Virus record (IMG/VR): IMGVR_UViG_2687453522_000004
DNA from: a virus
Lineage: Duplodnaviria; Heunggongvirae; Uroviricota; Caudoviricetes
Length of the DNA: 37,205 nt
Direction: 5' to 3' (one strand)
Shown here one piece after another: positions 2,907 through 33,972 of this stretch (within the stretch, counting starts at the first letter, position 1; every line of letters begins with the position of its first letter). The notes below the pieces were generated by a model. The model searched no databases. It saw nothing but the letters and a program-made list of their open reading frames with translations, and was not told the origin of the DNA. A program made the position numbers and the translations under genes.

Positions 2907-3385
2907 TATCCCGCCCCCGTCATACCCGTGAATTTAGTCGCCATACTGCCAGCCTTACCGATGAGCGATTCCGCCTGTTTACCGATATCGCCATAAAGCG
3001 CGGCCAGTGATTCATCAACGCGGGTGAGCGACAGCGTAAAATCAATTTTCCGGGGTGTGCCGTCTGCAAAGAAAATACTCCCTGTTTCACTCACCTTGCT
3101 GATGACATACATGCCGTAAATCATGCCGGTGCCATCCAGCAACGGCCACGCCCGCCCCTCCTCTGCCATCAGCCTGAGCGTGGTCATCGTCAGCTTGCCG
3201 CCGGTCAGTTCGGGATAAAGCACACCGGCAAGCGTGATGTTTTCCTCACCCACACCGAGAAACTGAAAAGCGTCCCGTTTACCGATACGGGAATTTGACG
3301 GCCAGCGATAATCTGATTCACGCTGCATGGTCTGGTGTGGCAGCGTCTGGCGCATAAAAACAAACATACCTAACGCGAGCATCAT
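2906..3385 (-). CDS. U: P2 gpU-like tail protein
   Basis: 159 aa; start overlaps the D stop (ATGA); between T and D as in P2. Confidence 0.88.
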   Translation of the reverse strand: MMLALGMFVFMRQTLPHQTMQRESDYRWPSNSRIGKRDAFQFLGVGEENITLAGVLYPELTGGKLTMTTLRLMAEEGRAWPLLDGTGMIYGMYVISKVSETGSIFFADGTPRKIDFTLSLTRVDESLAALYGDIGKQAESLIGKAGSMATKFTGMTGAG

Positions 3386-3399
3386 TTTTCGTCACCTCC

Positions 3400-5847
3400 T
3401 TAACCGTCATGCATCATGCTGGCACGGGCGCGCGCACGTTTATCCCGCTCGTATTTTTCGAGCGCATCCTGTAACTGGCGGTCGAGCTGTGTCCCCGGCG
3501 CAGTACCACCCGTCAGGCTGATGTGATATTCGTTTTTACTCTGGTCTACATAAGAGCGGCCAGCCGGTGCCGTGACCGGCTGATAAGCCTGATAACCTGC
3601 ATAAGAGCTGGTCGCCGGAATATAACCACCGCGGCCATACGTGGCGGCTTGAGTTCTGGCGGCGGTCTGGTCAAGTGTGTCTGACTCTTTGTTGATAACA
3701 CCGAGTTTTTCCAGTACCCAGTCAATACCACTGCGCAGTTTGTTGAACGCATTAAGCGGCAGCATCAGCGCGTCAGCCAGTGCCTGCCCGAACATGACCC
3801 CCGTGTCACGGCAACGGTTCAGGGTGTCCTGAGTGGCTTTGACCGGGGCAATCAGGTTTTTAAACCACTGCCACGCGGCCTGTAACTTTTCACCCAGCCA
3901 GTCAAACACCGGCTTAAGTGGCGTGAACAGTTCCCCCACCGGCGCAAATGCCACTTTCAGCCCTTCAACCACACCGCCAAAGAATGCGCTGACAGGCTCC
4001 CAGTATTTACGGATAAGCAACGCCCCGGCGACAATTGCGGCCACCACGGCCACAACCGGCCAGCTAATAGCCCCGATGGCGGTCATAACAGCACTGCCAA
4101 CCGTCGTGAAGACTGCCCCCATTGCGCCTGCTGCCGCGATGATGGCATTGATGCCGGTGATAACCGGCCAGGCGACAAGACCAATGGCACCGATGATGCC
4201 AGTAAGCGCCAGTGCGCCACCGACAATGAGGCCGATGGTTGACGCCAGTGATTTGTTTTTCTTGATCCAGCCGTCGAGTTTTAACACATACTTTGTGGCC
4301 GTCTGCGTGAGATTACGCAGTGCGCCTTCCTGCTGGTCAAACAGGTCAGTCCCCACCGCCTCATAAGCAGACTGAAACTCCTTAAAGTCACCGCCGAGGT
4401 TGTCCTGCATGATATTTACCAGCTCGGCGGTCTTCCCGTCTGAGGCTTTAAACGCAGCGGTCAGTTTGTCCAGCTTTCCGGTTGAGGCGGCAGTCATCAG
4501 CACGGCGGCGGCTGAGCTGGCCTCCTCCCCGAAAATAGTTTTCATGTATTCAGCCTGCTGGGCAGTACCGAGCCGGTTTTTCTCAAAACTGGCCTGCATT
4601 TCTTTCAGAATGGTAAATACTGGTCGGGTGTTTCCCTTGCTGTCTGAGGTTTTCACACCAAGCTCTTTCAGTGCATCCCATGCTTTTCCCGTCGGTGCCT
4701 GCAGGCGGCTTAACACGGCACGGCTTCCCGTCCCCGCCATTGAACCGGTAATTTTTGCATCATGCAGTGCCCCGACCATTGCGGCGGTTTCTTCAATGCT
4801 GACACCGGCATTTTTTGCCACAGGTGCGGCATAGGTCAGCGCATCGCTCATGCCGTCAAAATCGGCGGCGGTTTTGTTCATCGTCATGGAGAGAACATCC
4901 CCGATATGAGCGACCTTATCGTTTGAAAGCTGAAAGGCGGATTTCATCCCCATCAACAGGGCGGCGTTTTCTTCCATCGTGCGACGGTTCGCCAGCGCCA
5001 TATTCAGCGTGACCGGCGTTGCCGCCTGAATGGCATCAACATCCCCGCCGGCTTTCGCAATGATAATCTGCGCACCGGCTGCATCATCCGCCGAGGCGGC
5101 GGTGTTGTCGCCAAGCTGGCGCGCCTGCTTGCGGAGTGCGGTCATTTCGGCGGAGTCTTTTGCCACTCCGAGCACGGCCTGCAATTCTGAGTTTTTCTGC
5201 TCAAACTCATAACCGGGCATCAGCAGCTTAACTCCGGCCATCGTTCCCGCCGCCGCAATCCCCACACCGGCAGCGCCCACTGAGGCTATATTTCCGGCCA
5301 GTTCCTTTCCGGCCTGATAACGCTGTTTGACTGCGTTAAGTTTTGCCTGTTGCGCACTGACACGCGCCAGCGCATCACGCTGACGGTTAAGCTGTGCGGT
5401 GGTTTCACTGATACGGTTTTTCAGTCCCTGCTCATCATGTGCAAGATTGCGGGTATTAATTCCCACAGCGGCCAGTTCCCGCTGCTGGCGTTTAACGGAA
5501 TCCGTCAGGCGGTTATATTTCGCCTGTAAGTCCTCCGCCGCACGCTTCGCGGATTCCAGCACTTTCGCCTGAGCACGTGTCGGACGTTCGGTGTTTTTAA
5601 ACTGTGTGGCAAGGGCTTCGGCCTCCTGCCGTGCCTTTTCAAGTGCATGACCAGTCACGGCGAGCTGTGCACTGGTCTTGCGAAATCCCTCAATACGGGA
5701 TGCCTGACCGTTCAGCTCGCGCAGTGATTTTTGTGTTTCCCGGATATCCCCCGACAGCGATTTGCTCGCTGTGCGGATGGATTTAAACGGACGGGATGCC
5801 TGGTCAACAGCCCTGAGCAATACCTGTAATTTTACATTGTTACTCAT
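3400..5847 (-). CDS. T: Tail tape measure protein (gpT-like)
   Basis: 815 aa, Ala/Gly-rich with coiled-coil N-terminus and hydrophobic central segments; immediately downstream of E/E'. Confidence 0.92.
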   Translation of the reverse strand: MSNNVKLQVLLRAVDQASRPFKSIRTASKSLSGDIRETQKSLRELNGQASRIEGFRKTSAQLAVTGHALEKARQEAEALATQFKNTERPTRAQAKVLESAKRAAEDLQAKYNRLTDSVKRQQRELAAVGINTRNLAHDEQGLKNRISETTAQLNRQRDALARVSAQQAKLNAVKQRYQAGKELAGNIASVGAAGVGIAAAGTMAGVKLLMPGYEFEQKNSELQAVLGVAKDSAEMTALRKQARQLGDNTAASADDAAGAQIIIAKAGGDVDAIQAATPVTLNMALANRRTMEENAALLMGMKSAFQLSNDKVAHIGDVLSMTMNKTAADFDGMSDALTYAAPVAKNAGVSIEETAAMVGALHDAKITGSMAGTGSRAVLSRLQAPTGKAWDALKELGVKTSDSKGNTRPVFTILKEMQASFEKNRLGTAQQAEYMKTIFGEEASSAAAVLMTAASTGKLDKLTAAFKASDGKTAELVNIMQDNLGGDFKEFQSAYEAVGTDLFDQQEGALRNLTQTATKYVLKLDGWIKKNKSLASTIGLIVGGALALTGIIGAIGLVAWPVITGINAIIAAAGAMGAVFTTVGSAVMTAIGAISWPVVAVVAAIVAGALLIRKYWEPVSAFFGGVVEGLKVAFAPVGELFTPLKPVFDWLGEKLQAAWQWFKNLIAPVKATQDTLNRCRDTGVMFGQALADALMLPLNAFNKLRSGIDWVLEKLGVINKESDTLDQTAARTQAATYGRGGYIPATSSYAGYQAYQPVTAPAGRSYVDQSKNEYHISLTGGTAPGTQLDRQLQDALEKYERDKRARARASMMHDG

Positions 5848-10298: not shown

Positions 10299-10646
10299 TT
10301 ACAACATAGTCAGGGACGTAAGCAGTCTTTTAGGCTGCCGCCAGTCGATACCTTCCAGCAGCATCGCCAGCTGTGCCGGTGTGAGGAACACTTTGCCATC
10401 CCGGGCTGACGGCCAGGCGAAGCGGCCGCGCTCCAGCCGTTTGGTCAGCAGACACAGTCCATCGCCGGTAGACCAGAGGAGCTTTACCTGACTGCCATTA
10501 CGCCCACGGAAGATAAAAACGTGACCTGACATCGGATCGTCTTTCAGCGTCGTCTGCACCTTTGCCGCCAGGCCGTTGAAGCCGTTTCTCATATCGGTGA
10601 TGCCAGCGACCAGCCAGATCTTTGTCCCTGATGGTAATGGGATCAA
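10299..10646 (-). CDS. tnpB: IS66-family TnpB (Orf2)
   Basis: 115-aa ORF MIPLPSGTKIWLVAGITDMRNGFNGLAAKV..., typical IS66 Orf2. Confidence 0.85.
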   Translation of the reverse strand: MIPLPSGTKIWLVAGITDMRNGFNGLAAKVQTTLKDDPMSGHVFIFRGRNGSQVKLLWSTGDGLCLLTKRLERGRFAWPSARDGKVFLTPAQLAMLLEGIDWRQPKRLLTSLTML

Positions 10647-11047
10647 CGTTTGAGCTCCCGTATCAGCAGGTTCAGGATATTTTCGCTGATGGCACCATTC
10701 AGACGGAGTGATCCGTGCCGGAACGTCACTTCACAGCTGATATTGAGTGATTCAGGTGTCGCAGCAGCTACAGGTTGTGACCGGGGGGAGGTTGTAGGGA
10801 CAACATCTTCGGCATCAAGTGTTATCGGGAGCAGCTCAGGCACGTTGTTTTCTGTTGTTGAAGGAGGACGTAGTTTTCCTTCGCGCCAGTACTGGCGCCA
10901 CTTGAACAGCAAATTATCGTTGATCCCATGCTCACGAGCGAGTTGCGCTACGGAGATCTCTGGTCGATGCGAGAGTTCAACCATTTTGATTTTGAACTCA
11001 ACGGGATAATTAGGGCTTTTTTTACGCACTGCGGTTAATGATTTCAT
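10643..11047 (-). CDS. tnpA: IS66-family TnpA (HTH accessory protein)
   Basis: 134-aa ORF, first gene of the IS66 triad, overlapping tnpB. Confidence 0.8.
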   Translation of the reverse strand: MKSLTAVRKKSPNYPVEFKIKMVELSHRPEISVAQLAREHGINDNLLFKWRQYWREGKLRPPSTTENNVPELLPITLDAEDVVPTTSPRSQPVAAATPESLNISCEVTFRHGSLRLNGAISENILNLLIRELKR

Positions 11048-11128
11048 GGATTGCGTCCACCATATTTGGTGTCCACTATTCTCTCAGGAATTTCAGGATC
11101 TGCCAGACGGTGCTGAGACGACGCTTAC

Positions 11129-11136
11129 ATTTGTTG
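11129..11136. repeat. Target-site duplication ATTTGTTG, right copy (IS66-family insertion)
   Basis: Exact 8-bp direct repeat of 8666..8673. Confidence 0.85.
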
Positions 11137-11161
11137 ACACGCGTACATAGCCAATAAGCAT
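11129..11161 (-). pseudogene. Serine DNA invertase, N-terminal fragment (MLIGYVRVSTN) with Shine-Dalgarno GGGGG, cut off by the IS66-family insertion
   Basis: On the minus strand, ATG CTT ATT GGC TAT GTA CGC GTG TCA ACA AAT then runs into the IS terminal repeat. Joining it to 8665..8105 restores a 197-codon invertase. Confidence 0.85.
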
Positions 11162-11188
11162 GAGCATCCCCCTGAATAAAAACCGGAG

Positions 11189-11704
11189 ATGATGCCACTT
11201 GCCCGTTATCTCTGCATTTTCATAAACGTTGGTTTGGGAGAAGGCTCTGTATTACCCGTTGGTGTGCCTGTTCCGTGGCCTTCAGCCACACTGCCAACAG
11301 GCTGGCTGAAATGCAACGGGGCGGCATTTTCTGCTGAAGAATACCCGGAACTGGCAAAGGCTTACCCGACAAATATATTGCCTGATTTACGTGGTGAATT
11401 TATTCGTGGCTGGGATGACGGGCGCGGAGTGGACAGTAGCCGGACGTTGTTGTCGTGGCAAAAAGGCTCTTATCTGGTTCAGGAAGCCAATATATCACCC
11501 GACAGCGTGGTGCAGTTTTCGGTAAACGACATTGCCCTGCTGGGATGGGATAAAACTGAAACCAATTCAGATATTCTCAGAGCGAAAAGTATACCTACAG
11601 AACATATCTGGAACCCCGTTCCAGTGGGAGCCTGGGGGATTCAGTATCTGGGTTATGCAAGGCCACGTAACATTGCATTTAACTACATCGTAAGGGCTGC
11701 ATGA
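11189..11704 (+). CDS. Alternative tail-fibre C-terminal segment (Sv'-like), currently not joined to the constant part; would fuse to H after inversion
   Basis: The open frame passes through the crossover site, encoding ...FINVGLGEGSVLPVGVPVPWPSATLPTGWLKCNGAAFSAEEYPELAKAYP..., a remembered Mu/P1-type fibre tip motif. There is no convincing independent start or promoter. A dedicated assembly gene follows. Confidence 0.7.
   Translation: MMPLARYLCIFINVGLGEGSVLPVGVPVPWPSATLPTGWLKCNGAAFSAEEYPELAKAYPTNILPDLRGEFIRGWDDGRGVDSSRTLLSWQKGSYLVQEANISPDSVVQFSVNDIALLGWDKTETNSDILRAKSIPTEHIWNPVPVGAWGIQYLGYARPRNIAFNYIVRAA
11219..11244 (+). repeat. Putative invertase crossover site (gix/hix/pix-like 26-bp imperfect palindrome) bounding the invertible tail-fibre segment on the invertase side
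   Basis: TTTTCATAAACGTTGGTTTGGGAGAA resembles the remembered Hin/Gin consensus TTnnnnnAAACC-NN-GGTTTnnnnnAA. Its 14 inner bases TTGGTTTGGGAGAA are identical in inverted orientation to the site at 13168..13193. Confidence 0.7.
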
Positions 11705-12321
11705 TGAGCAAGAAAACCATGACTACAGCGGTGCTGAATGAATCGCGGCTGGCAACAGTTGCAGGAGAGGTTGTTGTCCACAGCTACGATAATAAGACGC
11801 GGGAATACCTTTGCACGTCAACCGAATATCTGGCTGTGGGCGTTGGCCTTCCTGCACATTCATGCACTGATGCCCCCGGGGAAAGGCGGGCTGGTTATGC
11901 AATTTGCCGCACAGCCGACCTGACCGCGTGGGAGTACGTGCCGGACCATCGGGGTGAGACAGTCTATAACACAGAAACCCGTGAGGCAGCAGAAATCACC
12001 ACTCCGGGGGATTACCCTGAAAACACAACCACTGTCGCCCCGTTAACGCCATACGATGAATGGGATGGTGAGAAATGGGTGACAGATACTGAGGCACAGC
12101 ATAGCGCCGCAGTAGGCGCGGCAGAAACACAGCGACAGTCACTGATTGATACTGCAATGGCTTCCATTAATCTGATTCAACTGAAATTGCAGGCCGGGCG
12201 AAAACTGACGCAGACAGAAACCACCCGGCTTAACGTCGTGCTGGATTACATTGACGCGGTGACGGTAACTGATACCAGCACCGCGCCGGATATCAATTGG
12301 CCTGCTCCCCCGGAGGCGTAG
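11701..12321 (+). CDS. Tail fibre assembly protein (U'-like) paired with the alternative fibre segment
   Basis: 206 aa; start overlaps the Sv' stop (ATGA); converges on and overlaps the other assembly gene by 29 bp. Confidence 0.75.
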   Translation: MMSKKTMTTAVLNESRLATVAGEVVVHSYDNKTREYLCTSTEYLAVGVGLPAHSCTDAPGERRAGYAICRTADLTAWEYVPDHRGETVYNTETREAAEITTPGDYPENTTTVAPLTPYDEWDGEKWVTDTEAQHSAAVGAAETQRQSLIDTAMASINLIQLKLQAGRKLTQTETTRLNVVLDYIDAVTVTDTSTAPDINWPAPPEA

Positions 12322-12739
12322 GCCAGACGGGATTTGATGTATCAACGCGCATCAGTAAGACCCGATATTTTTTCCATTCAGACAACGCGGCGGTTTCTTC
12401 TGCCGTCGCGATTTCCGCATCAAAAGCATCCTGTCTCCAGACTATTTCCTTATCAGCCATTGAACGCAATACCGTTCTTTTCTGTTCAGCCTGAATAATC
12501 TGTTGTTCAGCGGAGAGTGGCGGGATATCAATCCATGCAGGATTACCATTTTTATCAGCCCCCAGCGTTTTGCCTTCTGGCGCTACGCCTGTGTAAATTG
12601 CTATTGTTTCATCATCAACATCAACGCCATTTTCAGGCCATGAACCGGCGCTGATATATACCTCTTTTAGTGCTTTCGGATAGAAAGAGCCTTTATAAAA
12701 TTTATTCATTCTTAATACCCCAGCGCGATAAAACAACAA
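12293..12739 (-). CDS. Tail fibre assembly protein (P2 G / Mu U-like) for the currently expressed fibre variant
   Basis: 148-aa ORF immediately downstream of the fibre gene; C-terminus ...SEWKKYRVLLMRVDTSNPVWPTPP resembles the conserved assembly-chaperone C-terminus. Confidence 0.8.
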   Translation of the reverse strand: MLFYRAGVLRMNKFYKGSFYPKALKEVYISAGSWPENGVDVDDETIAIYTGVAPEGKTLGADKNGNPAWIDIPPLSAEQQIIQAEQKRTVLRSMADKEIVWRQDAFDAEIATAEETAALSEWKKYRVLLMRVDTSNPVWPTPPGEQAN

Positions 12740-22940: not shown

Positions 22941-24713
22941 ATGACCATCACCACAGACACCACTCTTTTACACGACCCGCGTCGTCAGGCGGCGCTGCTG
23001 TACTGGCAGGGATTTTCCGTGCCGCAGATTGCCGCCATGTTGCAGATGAAACGCCCGACGGTGCAGAGCTGGAAACAGCGCGACGGCTGGGACAGCGTTG
23101 CCCCCATCAGCCGTGTCGAAATGAGTCTGGAAGCGCGGCTGACCCAGCTCATCATCAAACCGCAGAAAACCGGCGGTGACTTCAAGGAAATTGACCTGCT
23201 GGGACGCCAGATTGAACGACTGGCACGGGTCAACCGTTACAGTCAGACCGGCAACGAGGCAGACCTTAATCCGAACGTCGCTAACCGCAACAAAGGCGGG
23301 CGGCGCAAACCGAAAAAGAATTTTTTCAGTGACGAGGCCATCGAAAAGCTGGAGCAGATTTTCTTTGAGCAGTCTTTCGAATATCAGTTGCACTGGTATC
23401 GCGCCGGGCTTGAGCACCGCATCCGCGATATCCTGAAATCCCGCCAGATTGGCGCGACGTTTTATTTTTCCCGCGAGGCGCTGCTGCGCGCCCTGAAAAC
23501 CGGTCATAACCAGATTTTTCTGTCGGCCAGTAAAACGCAGGCGTATGTGTTCCGCGAATACATCATCGCCTTTGCCCGGCTGGTTGACGTTGACCTGACC
23601 GGTGACCCGATTGTCCTGGGCAATAACGGCGCAAAACTGATTTTTCTCGGCACCAACTCCAACACCGCGCAGAGCCATAACGGCGACCTGTACGTCGACG
23701 AGATTTTCTGGATCCCGAATTTTCAGGTACTGCGTAAGGTGGCATCAGGTATGGCCTCACAGAGTCACCTGCGTTCGACCTATTTCTCCACCCCGTCCAC
23801 GCTGGCGCACGACGCCTACCCGTTCTGGTCGGGTGAACTGTTCAACCGGGGACGCGCCAGCGCCGCCGAACGCGTGGAAATCGACGTCAGTCATAACGCC
23901 CTTGCCGGTGGGCTTCTCTGTGCAGACGGCCAGTGGCGGCAGATTGTCACCATTGAGGACGCGCTGAAAGGCGGCTGCACGCTGTTCGACATTGAGCAGC
24001 TCAAACGTGAAAACAGCGCCGACGATTTTAAAAACCTGTTCATGTGTGAATTTGTTGACGACAAGGCGTCGGTGTTCCCGTTCGAGGAGCTGCAACGCTG
24101 CATGGTCGACACGCTGGAAGAATGGGAAGACTATGCGCCGTTTGCCGCGAATCCGTTCGGCTCCCGCCCGGTATGGATTGGTTACGACCCGTCACACCGT
24201 GGCGACAGCGCCGGATGCGTGGTACTGGCACCGCCGGTGGTGGCCGGTGGCAAATTCAGAATACTTGAGCGTCACCAGTGGAAAGGCATGGACTTTGCCA
24301 CTCAGGCGGAATCCATCCGCAAACTCACCGAAAAATACAACGTCGAATACATCGGTATTGATGCCACCGGCCTCGGTGTCGGCGTGTTCCAGCTCGTGCG
24401 CTCGTTCTATCCCGCCGCGCGCGATATCCGCTACACACCGGAAATGAAAACCGCAATGGTGCTCAAGGCAAAAGACGTCATCCGCCGTGGCTGTCTGGAA
24501 TATGACGTCAGCGCCACCGACATCACCAGCTCGTTTATGGCTATCCGCAAGACCATGACCAGCAGCGGACGCAGCGCCACGTATGAGGCCAGCCGCAGCG
24601 AGGAAGCCAGCCACGCCGACCTCGCCTGGGCGACCATGCACGCCCTGTTAAATGAGCCACTCACCGCCGGTATCAGCACCCCGCTGACATCCACCATTCT
24701 GGAGTTTTACTGA
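22941..24713 (+). CDS. P: Terminase large (ATPase) subunit gpP-like (start MTITTDTTLLHD; the ORF track starts at 22911)
   Basis: About 590 aa; GAGG Shine-Dalgarno before 22941; stop overlaps the Q start. Confidence 0.92.
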   Translation: MTITTDTTLLHDPRRQAALLYWQGFSVPQIAAMLQMKRPTVQSWKQRDGWDSVAPISRVEMSLEARLTQLIIKPQKTGGDFKEIDLLGRQIERLARVNRYSQTGNEADLNPNVANRNKGGRRKPKKNFFSDEAIEKLEQIFFEQSFEYQLHWYRAGLEHRIRDILKSRQIGATFYFSREALLRALKTGHNQIFLSASKTQAYVFREYIIAFARLVDVDLTGDPIVLGNNGAKLIFLGTNSNTAQSHNGDLYVDEIFWIPNFQVLRKVASGMASQSHLRSTYFSTPSTLAHDAYPFWSGELFNRGRASAAERVEIDVSHNALAGGLLCADGQWRQIVTIEDALKGGCTLFDIEQLKRENSADDFKNLFMCEFVDDKASVFPFEELQRCMVDTLEEWEDYAPFAANPFGSRPVWIGYDPSHRGDSAGCVVLAPPVVAGGKFRILERHQWKGMDFATQAESIRKLTEKYNVEYIGIDATGLGVGVFQLVRSFYPAARDIRYTPEMKTAMVLKAKDVIRRGCLEYDVSATDITSSFMAIRKTMTSSGRSATYEASRSEEASHADLAWATMHALLNEPLTAGISTPLTSTILEFY

Positions 24714-25747
24714 TGAGCAAGAAAAAAGGGAAAACACCGCAACCTGCGGCCAAAAAAATGACCGCCAGCGCCCCGAAAATGGAAGCATTCACCTTTGGCG
24801 AGCCGGTACCGGTACTCGACCGCCGTGACATTCTGGATTACGTCGAGTGCATCAGTAACGGCAGATGGTATGAACCACCGGTCAGCTTTACCGGTCTGGC
24901 AAAAAGCCTGCGTGCTGCCGTGCATCACAGCTCACCGATTTACGTCAAACGTAATATTCTGGCCTCAACATTTATCCCGCATCCGTGGCTTTCCCAGCAG
25001 GATTTCAGCCGCTTTGTGCTGGATTTTCTGGTGTTCGGTAATGCGTTTCTGGAAAAGCGTTACAGCACCACCGGTAAGGTCATCAGACTGGAAACCTCAC
25101 CGGCAAAATATACCCGTCGTGGCGTGGAGGAGGATGTTTACTGGTGGGTGCCGTCCTTCAACGAGCCGACACCTTTCACGCCCGGCTCCGTGTTTCACCT
25201 GCTGGAGCCGGATATCAATCAGGAGCTGTACGGCCTGCCAGAATATCTGAGCGCCCTTAACTCTGCCTGGCTGAATGAGTCGGCCACGCTGTTCCGCCGC
25301 AAGTATTACGAAAACGGCGCTCATGCCGGATATATCATGTACGTCACCGATGCCGTGCAGGACCGCAACGATATCGAAATGCTTCGCGAAAACATGGTTA
25401 AGTCGAAAGGCCGCAACAACTTTAAAAATCTGTTTCTCTATGCCCCGCAGGGGAAAGCTGACGGCATTAAAATTATCCCGCTCAGTGAAGTGGCAACGAA
25501 GGACGATTTTTTTAATATCAAAAAAGCCAGCGCCGCTGACCTGCTGGACGCGCACCGCATCCCCTTTCAGTTGATGGGCGGCAAGCCGGAGAACGTCGGG
25601 TCACTGGGAGATATTGAGAAAGTGGCAAAGGTCTTTGTCCGCAATGAGCTTATCCCGCTACAGGACAGGATCCGCGAGATAAACGGCTGGCTCGGTCAGG
25701 AGGTCATCCGCTTTAAAAACTACTCACTGGACACTGACAACGGCTGA
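24713..25747 (+). CDS. Q: Portal protein gpQ-like
   Basis: 344 aa; last gene before cos. Confidence 0.92.
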   Translation: MSKKKGKTPQPAAKKMTASAPKMEAFTFGEPVPVLDRRDILDYVECISNGRWYEPPVSFTGLAKSLRAAVHHSSPIYVKRNILASTFIPHPWLSQQDFSRFVLDFLVFGNAFLEKRYSTTGKVIRLETSPAKYTRRGVEEDVYWWVPSFNEPTPFTPGSVFHLLEPDINQELYGLPEYLSALNSAWLNESATLFRRKYYENGAHAGYIMYVTDAVQDRNDIEMLRENMVKSKGRNNFKNLFLYAPQGKADGIKIIPLSEVATKDDFFNIKKASAADLLDAHRIPFQLMGGKPENVGSLGDIEKVAKVFVRNELIPLQDRIREINGWLGQEVIRFKNYSLDTDNG

Positions 25748-25752
25748 ACATC

Positions 25753-25774
25753 GCCGCCTGCGGGCGGCTTTTTT
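25753..25774 (+). terminator. Rho-independent terminator after Q
   Basis: GCCGCC-TGCG-GGCGGC hairpin followed by TTTTTT, 6 nt after the Q stop. Confidence 0.7.
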
Positions 25775-25916
25775 ACATCCCGTCATCACGCCCTCACACG
25801 CTCACCACCGCACAAAACAGTCCGCAGGCAAACCAACGCCTCAACGGACAGACTAAGCGCCGTCACGACGCGCTGAGACGCTGAAAAAATAAAATCAGCA
25901 CCACCGCCAGCGCGCA

Positions 25917-25935
25917 GTGCTTTCCCCGCCTCGCC
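25917..25935 (-). other. cos site (19-nt cohesive end GGCGAGGCGGGGAAAGCAC on the minus strand)
   Basis: Plus strand GTGCTTTCCCCGCCTCGCC matches the remembered P2 cohesive-end sequence; it lies between the portal gene and the accessory hotspot, as expected. Confidence 0.75.
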
Positions 25936-26030
25936 CGCCCGCTTCATGGGGCGGTTTTGATGCAACCTCGTATTAAAGGGGACACCATAGCCCATCAAAC
26001 CTCAGACTTCGCCCCTAGCTAACGTTTATG

Positions 26031-26060
26031 AATGCAATGTAATGCAACTTAATGCAAGTT
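26031..26060 (+). repeat. Three tandem 10-bp repeats AATGCAA(T/C/G)(G/T)T upstream of the cargo gene
   Basis: AATGCAATGT AATGCAACTT AATGCAAGTT, ending 58 bp before the ATG at 26119. Confidence 0.6.
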
Positions 26061-26118
26061 ATGGTAATGATAATTCTGCGTTAACAATTAAACTAATGTA
26101 CCTGTAAGAGGATAAAAA

Positions 26119-28602
26119 ATGTCTGGTTTTTTCCTTGATTTAACCAAGCTTTCGCCCAGTGTAAATAGCGACACAGCGATTCCACCGCGAGATATATTTA
26201 CAGCTCTACCGAGCAAAGACACCAAATTTCAATACCCTCGAGATGTGCAATCAGAGGTCTGGGAAAAATGGTATGAAGCAAGGAGAAGCCCAACCAATGT
26301 AATAAAAATGAATACCGGAAGCGGTAAAACTTCAGTTGGGTTAATCATTCTTAAAAGCTGTATAAATGAAGGAGAAGGTCCCGCTGTATATGTTGTTCCT
26401 GACAACTATCTAGTTGAGCAAGTGGTTTTGGAGGCTAATCAACTTGGTATACCTGTAACTCAAGATGAGAGGTCCCCCAAATTTATTGCAGGTAAAGAAA
26501 TTTTAGTTACAAATATATTCAAAGTGGTTAATGGACGTTCTGCATTTGGCGTTGGAGATGATGGACAAAGAATACCAATAGGTTCTATAATAATTGACGA
26601 TGCTCACGCTTGCCTTTCTTCAATTGAAGAACAATTCTCCATTAGCATTCAAAAAAACAACCCTGCCTATGATAAATTATTCAGAATTTTTGAAAATTCA
26701 CTAATGACACAAGCTGGTGCAAAAACACTAGAGATAAAATCCGGCGATAGAAATGCTTATGTGAGAGTTCCATTTTGGAAATGGCAAGAAAGCATAAATG
26801 ATATAATGACAATCTTGTTAGAAAATAAAGACCATGATGACTTGAGTTTCAAATGGCCATTAATAAAAGACAATCTAATATTATCGAAATGCGTTGTAAG
26901 TGCTTCCAAAATAGAGATATCACCTCATTGCATACCAATCCAAATGATCCCAAGCCTATCAAACGCAAGAAGAAAAATATTCATGACAGCTACTCTTGTC
27001 GATGAATCCATTCTAGCGAGCCACTTCGGAATAACGGATGAATCACTCTCTAATCCGATAACACCAAAAACAATTGGTGATATTGGTGATAGAATGATAC
27101 TAATGCCTCAGGTTATAAACCCTAGTCTTTCTGATGTAGATATCAAAGCTATGTGCAAGGAGATATCCTCCAAACATAATGTTGTTGTAATTGTACCATC
27201 CGATTACAGAACTAGATTTTGGCAAGATGTTGCAGACAGAATATTAGATAAAAATACAATTTATCAAGGTGTACAAGAATTAAGGACACAACATGTTGGC
27301 TTAGTAGTCCTAGTTAATAGATATGATGGTATTGATTTACCAAATACCGCATGTCGTCTATTAGTAATAGATGGACTTCCTGACGTTCGTAGACTAATAG
27401 ATAAAGTCTCACAAAGCTTATTGCTTGGAAGCGAAAAAACCAAAGATGAAATTATCCAGAAAATTGAACAAGGAATGGGGCGAGGAGTGAGATCAAGCGA
27501 CGACTTCTGCGGAGTGATCTTACTTGGCAAAGCATTAAATGGCGCTGTTTTCCTTGGCTCCTCCTTAGAAAGGTTTTCTCCAGCAACGAAAGCACAAATT
27601 CAACTTTCACAGCAATTGGTATCGATACTGCCGGATACAACTATTGATTCAATCAAAGGTGCTCTTGATTATTGTCTGTTACGCAATTCTGACTGGGTCT
27701 CAAAAAGCAAAGGTATATTGACTGGCTTAACATTGGAAAATAAGCAGATTGACCAGCATACTATAAATAAAAGATTGGCATATGACTTAGCATCACGAAA
27801 TATGTTTCAACAAGCCGCTTTAACTCTAAAAAATGATAGTAGTACAGCTGACAAAGTTTATAAGGGTTATCTAAAAGAACATGCTGCGGAATATGTAAAC
27901 TTATATGACAAATCTGAAGCTCAGATATTGCTTCAGTCTGCATCAAACGATAACTATCGGGTATTAAAACCACTAATCGGCGTAACATATAATAGACTTA
28001 ATGGTGCGGCACTTGAACAGGCCAGGGAATGTAGCTCCTATCTCAGAAGTAATTTTGAATCGGCCAATCAAGTCGTTGTGCATACTAATTCAATAATAGA
28101 AAACCTTATTTTCTCCGAGGGCACATCGAATCCCTTCGAAGATGCTATCGAAAAAGTTGCATATTTGGTCGGTTTTCGTAGCCAACGGCCAGAAAATGAT
28201 ACAGGTAAAGGACCTGACAATTTATGGGCAATGGGAGAAAACAATTATCTAGTAATTGAATGCAAAAATGGAGCAACCGCAGAAAGAATAAGTAAGCATG
28301 ACTGCAATCAGTTAAATGGGTCGGGTGCATGGTTCAGAAACATGTATGATCAAACTGCTACCGCCACACCTATAATGATACATCACTCTAATATGCCTGA
28401 ATATGCCGCAACACTAAACGAAGGGTCTCGAATAATGACCATAAATGATCTTGAACGTTTTAAAGCATCTATCCTCAGTTTTATCACGGCCATTTGTACA
28501 AGTGATAAACGACACGATGAGATATTTATAAGAGAACAATTGATCACATGTAAATTACGTGCATCAGACATAGTTGAAACCTATACGCGAAACCCTCGTT
28601 AA
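26119..28602 (+). CDS. Low-GC cargo gene: 827-aa SF2 (DEAH/ResIII-like) helicase fused to a C-terminal PD-(D/E)xK nuclease; candidate single-gene anti-phage defence protein
   Basis: Uninterrupted ORF with AAGAGG Shine-Dalgarno. Helicase motifs: MNTGSGKT (Walker A), VVPDNY, IIIDDAHAC (motif II), FMTATL (motif III), QGMGRGVR (motif VI). C-terminal ...GPDNLWAMGENNYLVIECK... gives a D ... E-x-K pattern. Codon usage is AT-rich, unlike the flanking phage genes. Confidence 0.6.
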   Translation: MSGFFLDLTKLSPSVNSDTAIPPRDIFTALPSKDTKFQYPRDVQSEVWEKWYEARRSPTNVIKMNTGSGKTSVGLIILKSCINEGEGPAVYVVPDNYLVEQVVLEANQLGIPVTQDERSPKFIAGKEILVTNIFKVVNGRSAFGVGDDGQRIPIGSIIIDDAHACLSSIEEQFSISIQKNNPAYDKLFRIFENSLMTQAGAKTLEIKSGDRNAYVRVPFWKWQESINDIMTILLENKDHDDLSFKWPLIKDNLILSKCVVSASKIEISPHCIPIQMIPSLSNARRKIFMTATLVDESILASHFGITDESLSNPITPKTIGDIGDRMILMPQVINPSLSDVDIKAMCKEISSKHNVVVIVPSDYRTRFWQDVADRILDKNTIYQGVQELRTQHVGLVVLVNRYDGIDLPNTACRLLVIDGLPDVRRLIDKVSQSLLLGSEKTKDEIIQKIEQGMGRGVRSSDDFCGVILLGKALNGAVFLGSSLERFSPATKAQIQLSQQLVSILPDTTIDSIKGALDYCLLRNSDWVSKSKGILTGLTLENKQIDQHTINKRLAYDLASRNMFQQAALTLKNDSSTADKVYKGYLKEHAAEYVNLYDKSEAQILLQSASNDNYRVLKPLIGVTYNRLNGAALEQARECSSYLRSNFESANQVVVHTNSIIENLIFSEGTSNPFEDAIEKVAYLVGFRSQRPENDTGKGPDNLWAMGENNYLVIECKNGATAERISKHDCNQLNGSGAWFRNMYDQTATATPIMIHHSNMPEYAATLNEGSRIMTINDLERFKASILSFITAICTSDKRHDEIFIREQLITCKLRASDIVETYTRNPR

Positions 28603-28611
28603 ACAGTAAAA

Positions 28612-28634
28612 GACCACCTCCTAAGGAGGTGGTC
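28612..28634. terminator. Probable bidirectional rho-independent terminator after the cargo gene
   Basis: Perfect 10-bp stem GACCACCTCC / GGAGGTGGTC with a 3-nt loop, 10 nt after the stop, with T/A-rich runs on both sides. Confidence 0.65.
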
Positions 28635-28841
28635 CTTGTATAATAAAAAGAACCAGTTTTTATTGTTAATAATACAATTCTCGAATTTCAACATAGACTT
28701 ATTGTACCACCAGTAAAATCATCAATATTAATATATAGAAAAAAAGAAATGTCGATTGTTTGTACGTAGCGTAATCATATTAACATATACAGATAAACAG
28801 CAACCTTACCATTATGCAACCAATCTAAAACATTATGTTTA

Positions 28842-29834
28842 TTACTCTGAATAACCAGAAAACCCACTCCACTCATCTACACTAGGATATGAAAATTGCT
28901 TTTCATTGTAATTGACGATCGCACCGCGTACTAACGCCTCAAGCTCCCATCGCTGCGGCCTGATACCGTTTTGAGCAAGGTCAACACGGATACGGGTGAT
29001 TTGCAATCGTTCAGACCGGGTCAGTCTGGCCGATGGTGCAATTTCATGTGGTTTTAACGGGCTTCCGTTTCTTTGCTGACGACCTGGCGTTCTCCGACCG
29101 TGTTTTAATGCACCCCTGAGCGCCCTCACGACCTCCGGGTCATTCCATTCGATAACACCGTCATCAACCAGATTTAGCACTGCTGCGGCGTGCTCAGAAG
29201 GTGTGGGAGCCGGTAACGAAGTATCACCACCGGTGAGCTTTCCACAGTTATTGACAGGACTCCGAGGCGCGGCGATGCCGCTTTTTAAAGTCAAAGGCTC
29301 AACGACCGGAACTTTCGGCACAATGCGCCAGTCCGTCGTTCTGGTGATATGAATATGACGCGCGCCGAGATGCGGCGCGTAAATGCCGACCACTCTCTCG
29401 ACTTCTTCCTCGTACTCGTTAACGTCATCCGACAGACTACGGGCGACCCTGACAGTCTGACAATCGCGCGGGACATTTGCCCCGCCCTGCGCGCTGATAT
29501 ACAGCGCAAAATCACCACTGTCTGCGGCGGCGCGTGCAGCCTCGACGCGCTCGTCAAACTCATCAGCAATGCTGACGCCGCGAGGCAATTTGCGTAGTTC
29601 ACGGTAAGCCCCCATTGTCGGCAGGCCAACCGTTTTAAATTGCGGAATGCGCCACGTTGACGCCCATGCGGTAACAGCCGCTGCAGTGTCTTTCAGCGGC
29701 CTGCCGGTGTCGTTATCGAGCTGACCATCCAGTGCATAGCCGTCGATGTTTTTTGAAATGTATTTCGCGATATATCCCGCAGCACCGCCCCGGTTAAGGT
29801 GTTTTGCCTGAAAACGGTTTCGCGCGGCTCCTCT
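28842..29834 (-). pseudogene. A: Replication initiation protein gpA-like, C-terminal fragment (about 330 codons) cut off from the N-terminal part by an IS21-family insertion
   Basis: Reading upstream from the ORF start at 29615 stays open and P2 A-like (...RGAARNRFQAKHLNRGGAAGYIAKYISKNIDGYALDG...) up to the IS boundary at 29835. Confidence 0.85.
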
Positions 29835-29919
29835 TGCGTATTACCGTGAAGGAGATCGGTGAGTAACATCGATGGAGATCGGTTCGTGTCACTTTCACAG
29901 AACCGTTTTTAAATTACCT

Positions 29920-30669
29920 TCACTGATCTCCTTCGGTCAACGGAGATTGTATTTTCCGCATTGATTCTCCTTTAAGTTCGATCTTGATACTGCCATGAAC
30001 CAGTCGATCTAGGATGGCATCCGCATGTGTGGAGTCTCCGATCATTTTGTACCAGTTTTCCACCGGCAACTGGCTCACTACGATGATTGAGCCTCGTTGG
30101 TACATCAGATCCACTATTTCCAGCAGGTCGCTACGCTGTTCTGATGAGAGAGGTTCCAGCCCCCAGTCATCCAGAAGCAGCAGATCGCTATTATTCAGCC
30201 TGGTCAAAAGTTTGCTGTATCTTCCATCAGCATGCCCCTGATAGCACTGTTCCATCAGCGCTTTAAGGCGATAATAGTAGACCTTGTATCCCTGTCGGCA
30301 GGCATTATGACCAAGTGCACATGCCAGGAACGTTTTACCGCTGCCGGTGGCCCCGGTCAGTAAAATATTTTGTTTCAGGGTTAACCAGTTTCCCTGACTG
30401 AGTGAACGGATGAGGGCCCTGTCCAGCCCTCTATTGTTACGATAATCCAGCTTTGATAACTCAGCATTAAGTCTGAACCGTGCATGTTTGATCAGACGCT
30501 CTGCCTTCCTGTTTTCACGGCAGGTTAGTTCTTCTGCTGTCAGTAATGACAGGCGTTCTTCGAAGCCCAGCTCCTGGTATGTGCCCGGTTGAGCAAGTTG
30601 CTTTTTAAGCGCATCACGGAAGCCGGTGAGTTTAAGTGCGGTCAGTTGTTCGTAAAGATGATTCATCAT
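29920..30669 (-). CDS. istB: IS21-family ATP-binding helper IstB
   Basis: 249 aa with Walker A (GATGSGKT) and Walker B (LLLLDDWG) motifs, DnaC-like. Confidence 0.88.
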   Translation of the reverse strand: MMNHLYEQLTALKLTGFRDALKKQLAQPGTYQELGFEERLSLLTAEELTCRENRKAERLIKHARFRLNAELSKLDYRNNRGLDRALIRSLSQGNWLTLKQNILLTGATGSGKTFLACALGHNACRQGYKVYYYRLKALMEQCYQGHADGRYSKLLTRLNNSDLLLLDDWGLEPLSSEQRSDLLEIVDLMYQRGSIIVVSQLPVENWYKMIGDSTHADAILDRLVHGSIKIELKGESMRKIQSPLTEGDQ

Positions 30670-30680
30670 TGGATCCCGTA

Positions 30681-32222
30681 TCAGTGGTAATACTCACTGC
30701 CGCGTACGTTTTCGTGTTCCATCGTGGATAACAGATCTGGTTTTGGATCCTGAACAGGTTGTTTATCCAGACCTTTTTCCAGGATCGATTTAATACCTGA
30801 CAGACGCCATACCTTTGTTTCCAGAGCTCTTGCACATGCTGCATTAAGTCTGGCTTTACTGTATTTTTTATGAAGGTTCAGGAGTCCAAGGCAGAAGCGA
30901 TAGCTTTGTTCCGGATGTGGACGAGAGTTCAGTATATGAAGCACATAACTATGAGTTTCACTGCCTATGTGCCCCGCCCATTCCAGAAGACGCTCTGGCG
31001 TCCAGGTGGCATGCTGTCGATGAGCTTCAGGCATGTGCTCGTTGCGGGTACTGTAGCCATAAGTACGCTTGCGCGGGTGCACAGCAACCTCCTGCCCCTG
31101 ATTGAAGAGTCTTACCAGTTCTCCGGAGATCCATGCTTCCAGTTGCTGGCCTAACAGCGAACATGGAACCGAGTAGTAATGTTTGTCGATTTCCACGTGG
31201 TAATCGGCATGAACTCTGACTTTCTTCACCAGGGTGTAACTGTAACTGGCTTCAGGAAGAGGCTTCAGTGCGGGTTTATCAAGCTGGATGAAGAGTTCTG
31301 CACGTGAATAACCCAACTTCTGCATTATTTTGTTATTCAGTCTTTCCAGCAACTCCCGAATGCGCTGATTAAGCGATGCAAGGCTGTAGAAGATCTCATG
31401 CCTGATTCGGGCCATGATCCAGCGTTCAACAACCTGAACGCCAACTTCAGCTTTGGCTTTATCTTTCGGTTTACGTGGCCGCGCAGGCAAAACTGCGACA
31501 TTATAATGCTCAAGCATCTGCTGGTAGGTAGGGTTAACGTCAGGATCATACTTACATGCCCTGGATGTGGCGCTTTTCAGATTGTCCGGAACAACAAGTT
31601 CAGGAACGCCACCCAACCACTGGAAGCAGCGAACATGACTCATCACCCAGTCTTCAAGCTGCTGAGACCAGGTGGCCTCTGCCCATGTGTAACTTGATGC
31701 CCCGAGAACAGCTACGATGACCTGAGCAGTTCTTATTTCTCCGGTCTCAGGGTCGGTAACGCCAACGGTAGGTCCACAGTAATCAACGAAAAGTTTTTCG
31801 CCAGCTTTATGTACCTGACGCATTGATGGTGAAGTGGTTTTGAGCCATTCACGGTACATCCGGCAGTAATGGTTATAGCTGTAAAAACCGCCTGGATTAC
31901 GCTCACAGTATTCTTCCCAGAGTAGCTGCAGCGTCACGCATTTATTACGCAGTTCCCGGTGTACTGTAGCCCAGTCAGGCAGAGAGTGCTTCTTCATCTT
32001 AACCTGGGTCTGAAGGAACGCATGTTTTAGTTTTGTATCATCCCATCCTGTAGGTAAGGGCCACTGCTTTATGCCAAGTTGAGCCGCCCGATTAGCATAT
32101 CTGGATACAACGGAAGGGGAGATTGCAAGACTACGACCAATTTGTCGATGGCTGAGTCCAACACCGTATTTAAGCCTAAGAATTTCTTTAAGTTTTCTCA
32201 TAGAAATTGGAACTGTTGGCAT
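30681..32222 (-). CDS. istA: IS21-family transposase IstA
   Basis: 513-aa ORF with N-terminal HTH and DDE core, upstream of and nearly abutting istB. Confidence 0.85.
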   Translation of the reverse strand: MPTVPISMRKLKEILRLKYGVGLSHRQIGRSLAISPSVVSRYANRAAQLGIKQWPLPTGWDDTKLKHAFLQTQVKMKKHSLPDWATVHRELRNKCVTLQLLWEEYCERNPGGFYSYNHYCRMYREWLKTTSPSMRQVHKAGEKLFVDYCGPTVGVTDPETGEIRTAQVIVAVLGASSYTWAEATWSQQLEDWVMSHVRCFQWLGGVPELVVPDNLKSATSRACKYDPDVNPTYQQMLEHYNVAVLPARPRKPKDKAKAEVGVQVVERWIMARIRHEIFYSLASLNQRIRELLERLNNKIMQKLGYSRAELFIQLDKPALKPLPEASYSYTLVKKVRVHADYHVEIDKHYYSVPCSLLGQQLEAWISGELVRLFNQGQEVAVHPRKRTYGYSTRNEHMPEAHRQHATWTPERLLEWAGHIGSETHSYVLHILNSRPHPEQSYRFCLGLLNLHKKYSKARLNAACARALETKVWRLSGIKSILEKGLDKQPVQDPKPDLLSTMEHENVRGSEYYH

Positions 32223-32415
32223 AGGTATCCTTTACCGGAATGGCAAAAGATACAGATCAACACACCTGTGAAGTTCCAATAACATTGATGGAGATCACTG
32301 AATAACAAAATGAGTCAAAAGTGATCTCCATCGATGTTATTCAGCGATCTGTTCAAATGTTATTACCCGATCTCGATGGAAGTTATTGAGTGATCTCCTT
32401 TCATGAAAATACGCA

Positions 32416-33707
32416 CCTCTTTCGTCGCCATCCTCTTTGAGCGCATAGCGACGCATGATTTCGATAATCTGGTTACGCTGGCGTGGATGACAAAAAAGCA
32501 TCATATGCCAGTGCGGCGTTCCGTCGTGGTGTGGCTCGACGACTCGCAAACCGTAGACCTGTAAATCATTATCCTTGAATGCCGTGCGCATCAGGCTCCA
32601 GATACGGCAGAGATAACGCTGCGCATCCTTTGGATTAAATGCCTCATCGTTCCAGCCGTGATTAAGCTGAACGGTTTTACTTTCGCCTTTTCCGACCTGA
32701 CGTGTCGGGTGATACTTTGACGGCGCGGTCAGCGTGATAAACATCCCCACATCACCCTCTGCGGCGGCGTAACGCTCAATACCGGCAATGGTGTTCATCA
32801 GCTCCATCCGGCGAATTTCAGGATTAGAAATACTGCCCATCACCTTACTGATAAGGTCGATGCGCTCGCCGGTTTCCCTGTTTTCAAGGTCACACGATTT
32901 AAGAAATTCCAGATTTGCCTGGCGGCGCGCACGCACATCACGAATGGCGTGTTTACTGGCATAAGGAGAACGGTCTTTATTGACCTCCCCGACAGCTATC
33001 AGTAACGCCTCATGCCAGCGCATACGCTGGCCTTTAAGCTGATGAGTCCACCACTCATCGTTAAACAGGCGGGCAATGGCAGAATATGCCTGCCTCGTGG
33101 TCATCTGTCCTTTACGGTATTTTTTCCAGTAGAGCGGGGAAATATTGAAAGCACGTGCAGCGCCAGCAACATGACCATACAGGTGAGCCTGCGCCTCATC
33201 CGTAAACAGCGATTCTTTTTCACCATGCGCATCAACCCATGCATCGCAGAGTTCCTCATACATCATGAAAAGCTGCGATGAGATACGGGCGGCAAACTTT
33301 TTCAGCTCCTTGTCATTCATTCCCGGCAGGCGCGCATAGTGGTCACGCTCTGCCAGAAACAGCAACGACGCGTCGGTGTTCATTTCATGGCGCTGATTCA
33401 CACGCTCAATGCGCGGCCATAAACGACGCTGAAAAGTAGATGTGAGGAAATAAAACCCGTGCACCGGGCTTTTATTGCGCCGGATGTAGTCATAGCGTGA
33501 AGTAAACAGCGAGCGCAAAAAGTAAGGCAGGCGGTTAATCGTGGATAAAACACCTTGCACCTGACGCATCTCGTCACGTGTAAGAGGTCTTTCGCGCCCG
33601 ACAGCCTCGCGTGGCGCGTTCCATGCATAAGCACCGGTAAACGCCTTACCGGTGCCTGCGGTAAATGCTGACGGAGGGACAAAACGCCCGGAGGCTTTAA
33701 CGGCCAT
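32416..33707 (-). pseudogene. A: Replication initiation protein gpA-like, N-terminal fragment (about 430 codons); the frame runs into the IS and stops at 32337
   Basis: Start MAVKASGRFVPPSAF (the ORF track extends to 33749); the P2 A-like sequence ends ...EDGDERGA at the IS junction, then reads IS-derived residues. Confidence 0.85.
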
Positions 33708-33972
33708 ATGAGCCAAAAGCCTCTGAACAACGCTTGCTGAGTTGCTCAACCTGCGCGTTTAAATCAGCAAAAGATTTTGCGCTTCCGGTCAGAATATCGT
33801 GATGCATCAGGCCGGAAACGAGCTGGCCTAATTTCGGGTAATAACCAACCACCGCCAGCCATTCCTGACCGGCGTTTTTACCGCTTTCCGCTCTCTTTTT
33901 CTCGTGGAGAATAAACTGAAAGCTGTCACTGGTAACGACATAACGTTCGCCAATTTCAATACGAATACTCAT
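33697..33972 (-). CDS. Small early-region hypothetical protein (P2 orf83-like position)
   Basis: 91-aa ORF immediately upstream of A, overlapping its start. Confidence 0.6.
   Translation of the reverse strand: MSIRIEIGERYVVTSDSFQFILHEKKRAESGKNAGQEWLAVVGYYPKLGQLVSGLMHHDILTGSAKSFADLNAQVEQLSKRCSEAFGSYGR

Follow-up and report, generated by a model that had tools for sequence, protein, structure and literature searches.

What fills the AT-rich gap between the cos site and replication gene A of a P2-like prophage, and where are the edges of this gap? We addressed this question in a 37,205-nt viral sequence, IMG/VR record IMGVR_UViG_2687453522_000004 (hereafter the window, in whose numbering all positions are given), which represents a P2-like prophage of Escherichia coli. 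The island under study extends from approximately 25936 to 28841. It is very probably the accessory-gene slot of P2-like phages, which lies between cos and the portal gene Q on one side and the end of gene A on the other, and in the window it holds hna alone, a gene for a superfamily 2 (SF2) helicase fused to a nuclease. Published work already covers the locus and the cargo family, and the RefSeq protein of this gene, WP_000012516, has itself been listed at this site. The points added here are modest: a group of repeats is best reassigned to the flank of cos, two boundary positions are given, and the non-coding tail of the cassette appears to be a mosaic. Their meaning beyond annotation is small.

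The initial annotation described the island as visibly richer in AT than the flanking phage genes, and a sliding-window analysis bore this out. The guanine-cytosine (GC) content of 300-nt windows within 26000-28850 was 0.371 ± 0.028, with a maximum of 0.417, compared with 0.558 ± 0.037 for the phage backbone (windows over 2000-25900). The GC content of third codon positions was 0.284 in hna, compared with 0.646 in the portal gene Q and 0.716 in the terminase gene P. The low-GC region extended from ~26020 to ~28905: the GC content was still ~0.5 over 25940-26019, fell to ~0.3 from ~26020, and stayed low for ~65 nt into gene A. The composition of the island is foreign to that of the backbone, as expected of hotspot cargo. 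Further, the island contains one gene, as had been claimed; its sole long open reading frame (ORF) spans 26119-28602 on the plus strand and encodes 827 amino acids (aa).

Many complete E. coli chromosomes contain the region 25700-29000 at 100% identity, and the genes there carry the annotations portal protein, DEAD/DEAH box helicase family protein and replication endonuclease. The slot is bordered on the left by Phage_portal (24713-25747) and the P2 cos sequence (25917-25935), and on the right by the Phage_GPA fragments (28842-29834 and 32337-33749). P2-like phages have their cos-proximal gpA-gpQ hotspot in this very position (Rousset et al., 2022, PMC9122126; de Sousa et al., 2026, PMC13586616). 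An early hint of it came from retrons in 186-like prophages (Dodd & Egan, 1996, cited in PMC5694545). The island shares with this hotspot its position, its AT-richness and its status as one of many alternative cargos, and the exact accession is in a published table: in a supplementary table of PMC9122126, WP_000012516 has at least 13 entries, where the arrangement is given as 'ResIII/DEAD' with a single gene. The island differs from the published hotspot in nothing essential; in the window prophage, an IS21-family element splits gene A.

P2 and six other P2-like phages aligned with the window on both flanks, and the genes between the flanks were unrelated. The alternative cargos comprised DUF4209/DUF7380, a Fic protein (VbhT), a cytolethal distending toxin, DUF3850 with a hypothetical gene, and a ParB-N protein with a methyltransferase. 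The slot of P2 itself carries orf91, tin and old and is equally AT-rich (GC 0.353, compared with 0.532 for P2 gene A). Among 5426 complete E. coli genomes, the flanks were matched in 2153, of which only 69 carried the hna cassette; the 69 copies were all at least 99.5% identical. No close relative of the cassette was found in the collections of isolated phages or plasmids. The view that the region between cos and gene A is a swappable cargo module was therefore upheld, since seven other P2-like phages keep the flanks and differ inside them, and few of the flank-positive genomes hold the cassette.

Two further records differed near the left edge of the slot. In E. coli strain 219 (NZ_CP020514.1) the cassette match begins at query base 134 and falls in two places in the record; the interval from cos to hna may have been rearranged or have received an insertion in this genome. 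The hna-carrying viral contig L028 has ~2.3 kb (2916-5233) inserted between the end of Q (window 25671) and cos (window 25910).

The protein encoded by the island gene aligned along its whole length with the PADLOC profile PDC-S28 (1054.6 bits, E=0; residues 6-825 with profile positions 2-826 of 831). PDC-S28 is an unpublished candidate label, whereas DefenseFinder names the same proteins Hna, as seen in a study that ran both tools (PMC11811056, supplement). Pfam ResIII, DEAD and Helicase_C_2 scored above their cut-offs, and an NCBIfam search of the protein returned no informative family. The sole match to a solved structure was to PDB 10UJ/9YKJ (phmmer, E=7e-121, residues 60-792), which are the monomer and dimer of S. 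meliloti Hna (Hooper et al., 2026, PMC13381803); the two proteins are 32.7% identical across 727 aligned residues. Mutation of K729 kills the nuclease of S. meliloti Hna (PMC13381803), and K716 of the present protein aligns with this catalytic lysine, within the motif E714-C715-K716 and after P699-D700. In an alignment of 17 homologues spanning 51-90% identity, all five of these residues, which form the core of a PD-(D/E)XK nuclease, were invariant. The helicase motifs GSGKT (67-71), DDAH (160-163), TAT (290-292) and QGMGRGVR (451-458) were present, as in the ATP-binding site of SF2 helicases; G67, G69-T71, D160-H163, T290, A291, Q451-G456 and R458 were invariant and T292 nearly so. The same alignment contained a conserved N-terminal stretch, SDTALxPRDIFTALP, and the translation has one cysteine only (C81) between motifs I and II. 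The slot contains no partner gene, as in the single-gene Hna system of ~830-845 aa. Because of the PDC-S28 match, the DefenseFinder naming, the match to 10UJ/9YKJ and the retained catalytic and helicase residues, the island gene can be assigned, as judged from its sequence, to the Hna family.

In S. meliloti, ATP holds Hna as an inactive dimer through a HEL1 loop (T30, D31 and P34), a phage single-stranded-DNA-binding protein (SSB) switches the enzyme on, and abortive infection follows (PMC13381803). The fold of Hna is DinG-like and lacks the four-cysteine iron-sulfur cluster. Phage resistance by abortive infection in response to phage SSB has been reported for S. meliloti Hna and for an E. 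coli Hna (PMC10732053). The present gene and that of S. meliloti are alike in being single genes of ~830-845 aa that keep the SF2 helicase motifs and the PD-(D/E)XK core with its lysine, and their products align over nearly the full length. They differ in sequence (~33% identity) and in setting: the gene of the window is cargo of a P2-like prophage, whereas the S. meliloti copy lies on pSymA. The Hna helicase-nuclease abortive-infection system was reportedly described by Sather et al. in 2023, who are said to have tested an E. coli Hna. Many of the strains with the cassette come from human hosts, and several of them may belong to carbapenem-resistant lineages, to which their names point.

Related hna alleles were found in other settings. 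An allele of 90% identity occupies the hotspot of another P2-like element, where two extra genes follow hna. An 80% allele lies beside the integrase in a Pectobacterium island, and a 77% allele lies in a Cronobacter lambdoid prophage, with replication gene P on one side and the region of the Q antiterminator on the other. All copies have a GC content of 0.35-0.38 regardless of their surroundings. DNA homology with the Pectobacterium and Cronobacter copies is confined to 26107-28563, starting at the ribosome-binding site, so that only the hna reading frame is common to the copies, each host element supplying its own flanks. A recombination junction was seen in the viral contigs L017 and L043, whose late genes are 61-88% identical to the window (100-nt windows). 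Past the last left-flank mismatch at 25917, within cos, identity rises to ~100%; it is 94-100% across the cassette, the tail and gene A, and the first right-hand mismatches are at 28971. The jump at 25917 puts a crossover within the conserved cos core or right next to it. Cutting by terminase may make this spot recombinogenic. In L009 (6548-7631), L018 and L049, the two extra genes of the 90% allele lie on the minus strand between hna and gene A. A SocA_Panacea domain (antitoxin-like) was detected in one of them and a faint match to DUF2975 in the second, giving a two-module cargo. The features of the slot and of the regions around it are listed in Table 1.

Table 1. Coordinates of features in and around the hna cassette and in the tail-fibre region of the window (dot, no strand assigned).
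Feature	Position	Strand	Remarks
Transposase helix-turn-helix (HTH) fragment	10643-11047	-	
Tail-collar-domain ORF	11189-11704	+	
Tail-fibre assembly gene	11701-12321	+	
Tail-fibre assembly gene	12293-12739	-	
cos, 19-nt P2 cohesive-end sequence	25917..25935	.	exact reverse complement of NC_001895 cosL 1-19, GGCGAGGCGGGGAAAGCAC
Conserved right half of cos core	25935..25964	+	GC hairpin + TTTT 25935-25954, first ATGCA 25960-25964; terminator-like site in scan
Three AATGCAA repeats, 10-bp phase	26031..26057	+	exact copies at 26031, 26041, 26051
Putative hna promoter and 5' untranslated region	26058..26118	+	-10-like GATAAT 26069-26074; ribosome-binding site AAGAGG 26106-26111, read from sequence
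hna, SF2 (DinG-like) helicase fused to C-terminal PD-(D/E)XK nuclease, 827 aa	26119..28602	+	RefSeq WP_000012516
Hairpin between convergent hna and gene A	28609..28637	.	7-10 nt past hna stop
AT-rich spacer specific to cassette allele	28638..28779	.	matches hna-carrying genomes/contigs only; no detectable feature
Segment adjoining A, common to DUF7380/DUF4209 cassettes	28780..28843	.	84.4% identity over 64 nt
Gene A C-terminal fragment	28842..29834	-	RefSeq annotation; last codons (28842-~28909) GC-poor, differ between phages
IS21-family element ISEc12 splitting gene A	29835..32415	-	istA 30681-32222, istB 29920-30669

The stop codon of gene A (28842-28844) had been taken as the right breakpoint of the cassette, and the alignments placed the breakpoint elsewhere. 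Other phages regain similarity to the window at 28854-28909, within the 3' end of A, and one cassette type does so from 28780 onwards. Since the low GC content also reaches ~28905, the last 4-22 codons of gene A are part of the variable region, and the right boundary lies ~10-65 bp inside the 3' end of the gene rather than at its stop. The element that splits gene A, ISEc12, has the termini TGCGTATT...AATACGCA and is flanked by CCTCT on both sides; in four related loci, gene A is intact at the insertion point. The window prophage is probably no longer able to replicate, though it has kept hna.

On the left, BLAST-detectable backbone homology to P2 and the six P2-like phages ends at 25963-25964. 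Three tandem repeats had been noted upstream of hna as part of the cassette; they are indeed present and exact, but they are not a feature of the cassette, for ATGCA occurs under every cargo examined. We compared the cos flank, in the orientation of the window, among 11 sequences: the window, P2, the satellite P4, 186, PsP3 and six other P2-like prophages or contigs. Positions +0 to +47 from cos were 94% identical across the phages. ATGCA starts at +43, +115, +125 and +134 to +138 from the first base of cos in nearly all of the sequences, the last three sites being occupied in 10 of the 11. Summed over the 11 sequences, 31 ATGCA motifs fell in a 33-nt zone, compared with 5 in the other 215 nt. 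The stretch from +48 to +107 is poorly conserved (41% ungapped identity) and has kept its length, and the 72-bp spacing of ATGCA is fixed. The motifs are kept under cargos on either strand and also in P4, in which the core gene psu occupies that side. P4 has only the packaging signal in common with P2.

The fixed distance of ATGCA from cos, whatever the cargo, argues that the AATGCAA repeats belong to the cos-flank backbone of the P2/P4/186 family rather than to the cassette. It would be the simplest reading of the comparison that the phased repeats form a distal part of the packaging signal of this family, unappreciated so far. The published cos core of the P2 family comprises 55 bp, according to PMC5694545, which cites Ziermann & Calendar (1990). 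The repeats resemble the terminase-binding repeats of lambda cosB: they are short and phased, stand at a conserved position and phase on one side of the nick site, and are kept across phages and a satellite that share a terminase. They differ from cosB in that their role is deduced from conservation only, and the 55-bp P2 core is too short to include +115. We put forward this extension of the packaging signal tentatively, as a possibility that we consider somewhat doubtful.

A scan of the whole collections for the triple repeat returned mostly unrelated tandem repeats from many phyla, together with nine relevant viral contigs, all of which were also recovered by tblastn. Contig L015 (2921-2960) has four AATGCAA units instead of three in front of the same hna cassette; a 10-bp unit has been gained, and the number of repeats thus varies.

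The hna promoter probably sits just past the repeats. The start of the P2 old-tin transcript is annotated at +167/+169 from cos, the equivalent of which in the window is ~26084, after GATAAT. Downstream of hna, a strong hairpin terminator had been proposed right after the stop codon. The hairpin is real: its predicted free energy is -18.9 kcal/mol on the plus strand and -21.6 kcal/mol on the minus strand (z -3.9 and -4.7), and no shuffled sequence was as good. On the minus strand, 13 pairs are followed by the tail TCTTTTACTGTTT, in the form of a rho-independent terminator; the T-run is found on this strand only, which is the direction of the early transcript reading through A, and the terminator scan accordingly flagged the site for the minus strand. 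In the 90% allele, a hairpin unlike this one in sequence occupies the same place, which argues for a real terminator that probably acts in both directions, on hna and on A. The hairpin is followed by ~200 bp of AT-rich non-coding DNA, as had been noted; this tail (28638-28841, 204 nt) has a GC content of 0.255 and no ORF longer than 33 aa. Its last part, 28780-28843, matches the spacer directly past the A stop in 41 E. coli genomes and in phage vB_EcoM-569R9, and its central ~140 nt had no relative in the collections searched beyond the hna carriers. The segment 28780-28843 is probably a recombination joint, as its similarity to the other spacer suggests.

Could the helicase-nuclease be a replication or repair gene of the phage itself, acting in the manner of DinG/XPD, rather than defence cargo? 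The gene adjoins replication gene A, and the Pfam matches are to generic helicase domains only, with a weak match to the DinG of type IV CRISPR systems. However, the gene is missing from ~97% of the flank-positive E. coli genomes, and the collection of isolated phages contained no close relative, its single match being 30% identical and located in a Salmonella genome record. Further, close homologues occupy unrelated islands and a lambdoid prophage, and the full-length matches are Hna and PDC-S28. On these grounds of sparse occurrence, unrelated contexts and family match we rejected a replication helicase of the phage, which now seems hardly credible, and we regard hna as accessory cargo. That the AATGCAA repeats regulate the hna cassette, serving as its operator or promoter and for instance binding a regulator of the cargo, is less remote and still unlikely. 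The repeats lie 62-88 nt 5' of the hna start, with the best -10-like hexamer directly after them, and are perfectly kept in the 90% allele though the spacers vary. Yet the same phased ATGCA is present under old/tin, Fic and opposite-strand cargos, on the psu side of P4, and in 186 and PsP3, whereas the hna copies outside P2 have no AATGCAA repeats. The constancy of the distance to cos across cargos, P4, 186 and PsP3 led us to reject a cassette operator in favour of repeats that belong to the cos flank.

Two suggestions had been made for the tail, a small RNA and the remnant of a displaced earlier cargo. In favour of a small RNA or a micro-protein working with hna, all 69 genomes and several viral contigs have the tail together with the 99% allele; the tail also has a promoter-like site on the minus strand (28669-28640) and weak matches to small RNAs over 28605-28673. 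These matches, however, reach only 23-29 bits against Rfam gathering thresholds of 47-54 and lie over the hairpin (STnc370, 28.8 against 54; CyaR, 22.9 against 47), and the folding of the tail gave no signal on either strand (z-scores -1.47 and +0.40). The ORFs of at most 33 aa matched nothing, for which reason a small protein was rejected; in the 90% allele, two unrelated genes replace the tail, and the hna copies outside P2 lack it. A functional product of the tail is thus quite improbable, and the small RNA was not borne out. The suggestion of a remnant fared better in part: 28780-28843 is 84% identical to the spacer of DUF7380/DUF4209 cassettes. We consider it reasonably likely that the tail is the 3' untranslated end of the early (A) transcript combined with the scar of an earlier cassette exchange. 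Gene A reads into the tail, the hairpin (28637-28609) has its T-run on that strand, the shared segment stands directly past the A stop in the DUF7380/DUF4209 cassette, and short intergenic remnants at such loci have been described as likely recombination leftovers (PMC13586616). Nothing directly opposes an untranslated end with an exchange scar, although the central part of the tail has no detectable relative.

From these features we infer how the cassette might work. In a lysogen, hna would probably be transcribed from its own promoter, just to the right of the cos-flank repeats, and transcription would probably end at the hairpin, which would also stop the convergent early (A) transcript. 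If the protein behaves like its S. meliloti homologue, the SSB of an infecting phage would release Hna, and the released enzyme would degrade DNA, so that the infection would be aborted. The slot itself would be swapped by recombination. One crossover would fall within the cos core or next to it, where the junction in L017 and L043 was observed, and a second within the 3' portion of gene A.

Several observations weigh against this account. A strict sigma-70 scan returned no plus-strand promoter upstream of hna, and no convincing pair of -35 and -10 elements was found there by eye or by scan. The hairpin has no T-run on the strand of hna. The identity to the biochemically studied Hna is only ~33%, so that trigger and regulation may differ; the N-terminal 59 residues lie outside the alignment, which gives no counterparts for T30, D31 and P34 of the dimer loop. 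Further, with an insertion in gene A the element is decaying, and hna could be silent.

Elsewhere in the window, other regions also depart from the backbone. A pair of IS3-type transposase genes on the minus strand occupies 1-1370 (HTH orfA, 849-1370; rve orfB, 1-852; GC 0.40-0.48) and represents a further insertion sequence at or in the end of the prophage. The tail-fibre region 10643-12739 has a lower GC content of 0.47-0.52 and could be a rearranged or once-invertible host-range segment.

For the annotation of these genomes, the gene listed as 'DEAD/DEAH box helicase family protein' can take the label Hna, in the P2 hotspot. A crossover at or near cos, together with the sharing of the reading frame only, makes the locus useful for studies of the exchange of defence cassettes. 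How far the packaging site of the P2 family really extends may become clearer with the aid of the ATGCA repeats. If they do form part of this site, the truly variable DNA would start at ~26058, and the inner edge of the defence hotspot would be set by the repeats, whose 10-bp unit can slip (three or four copies); the promoters of the cargos would then have to begin directly past them.

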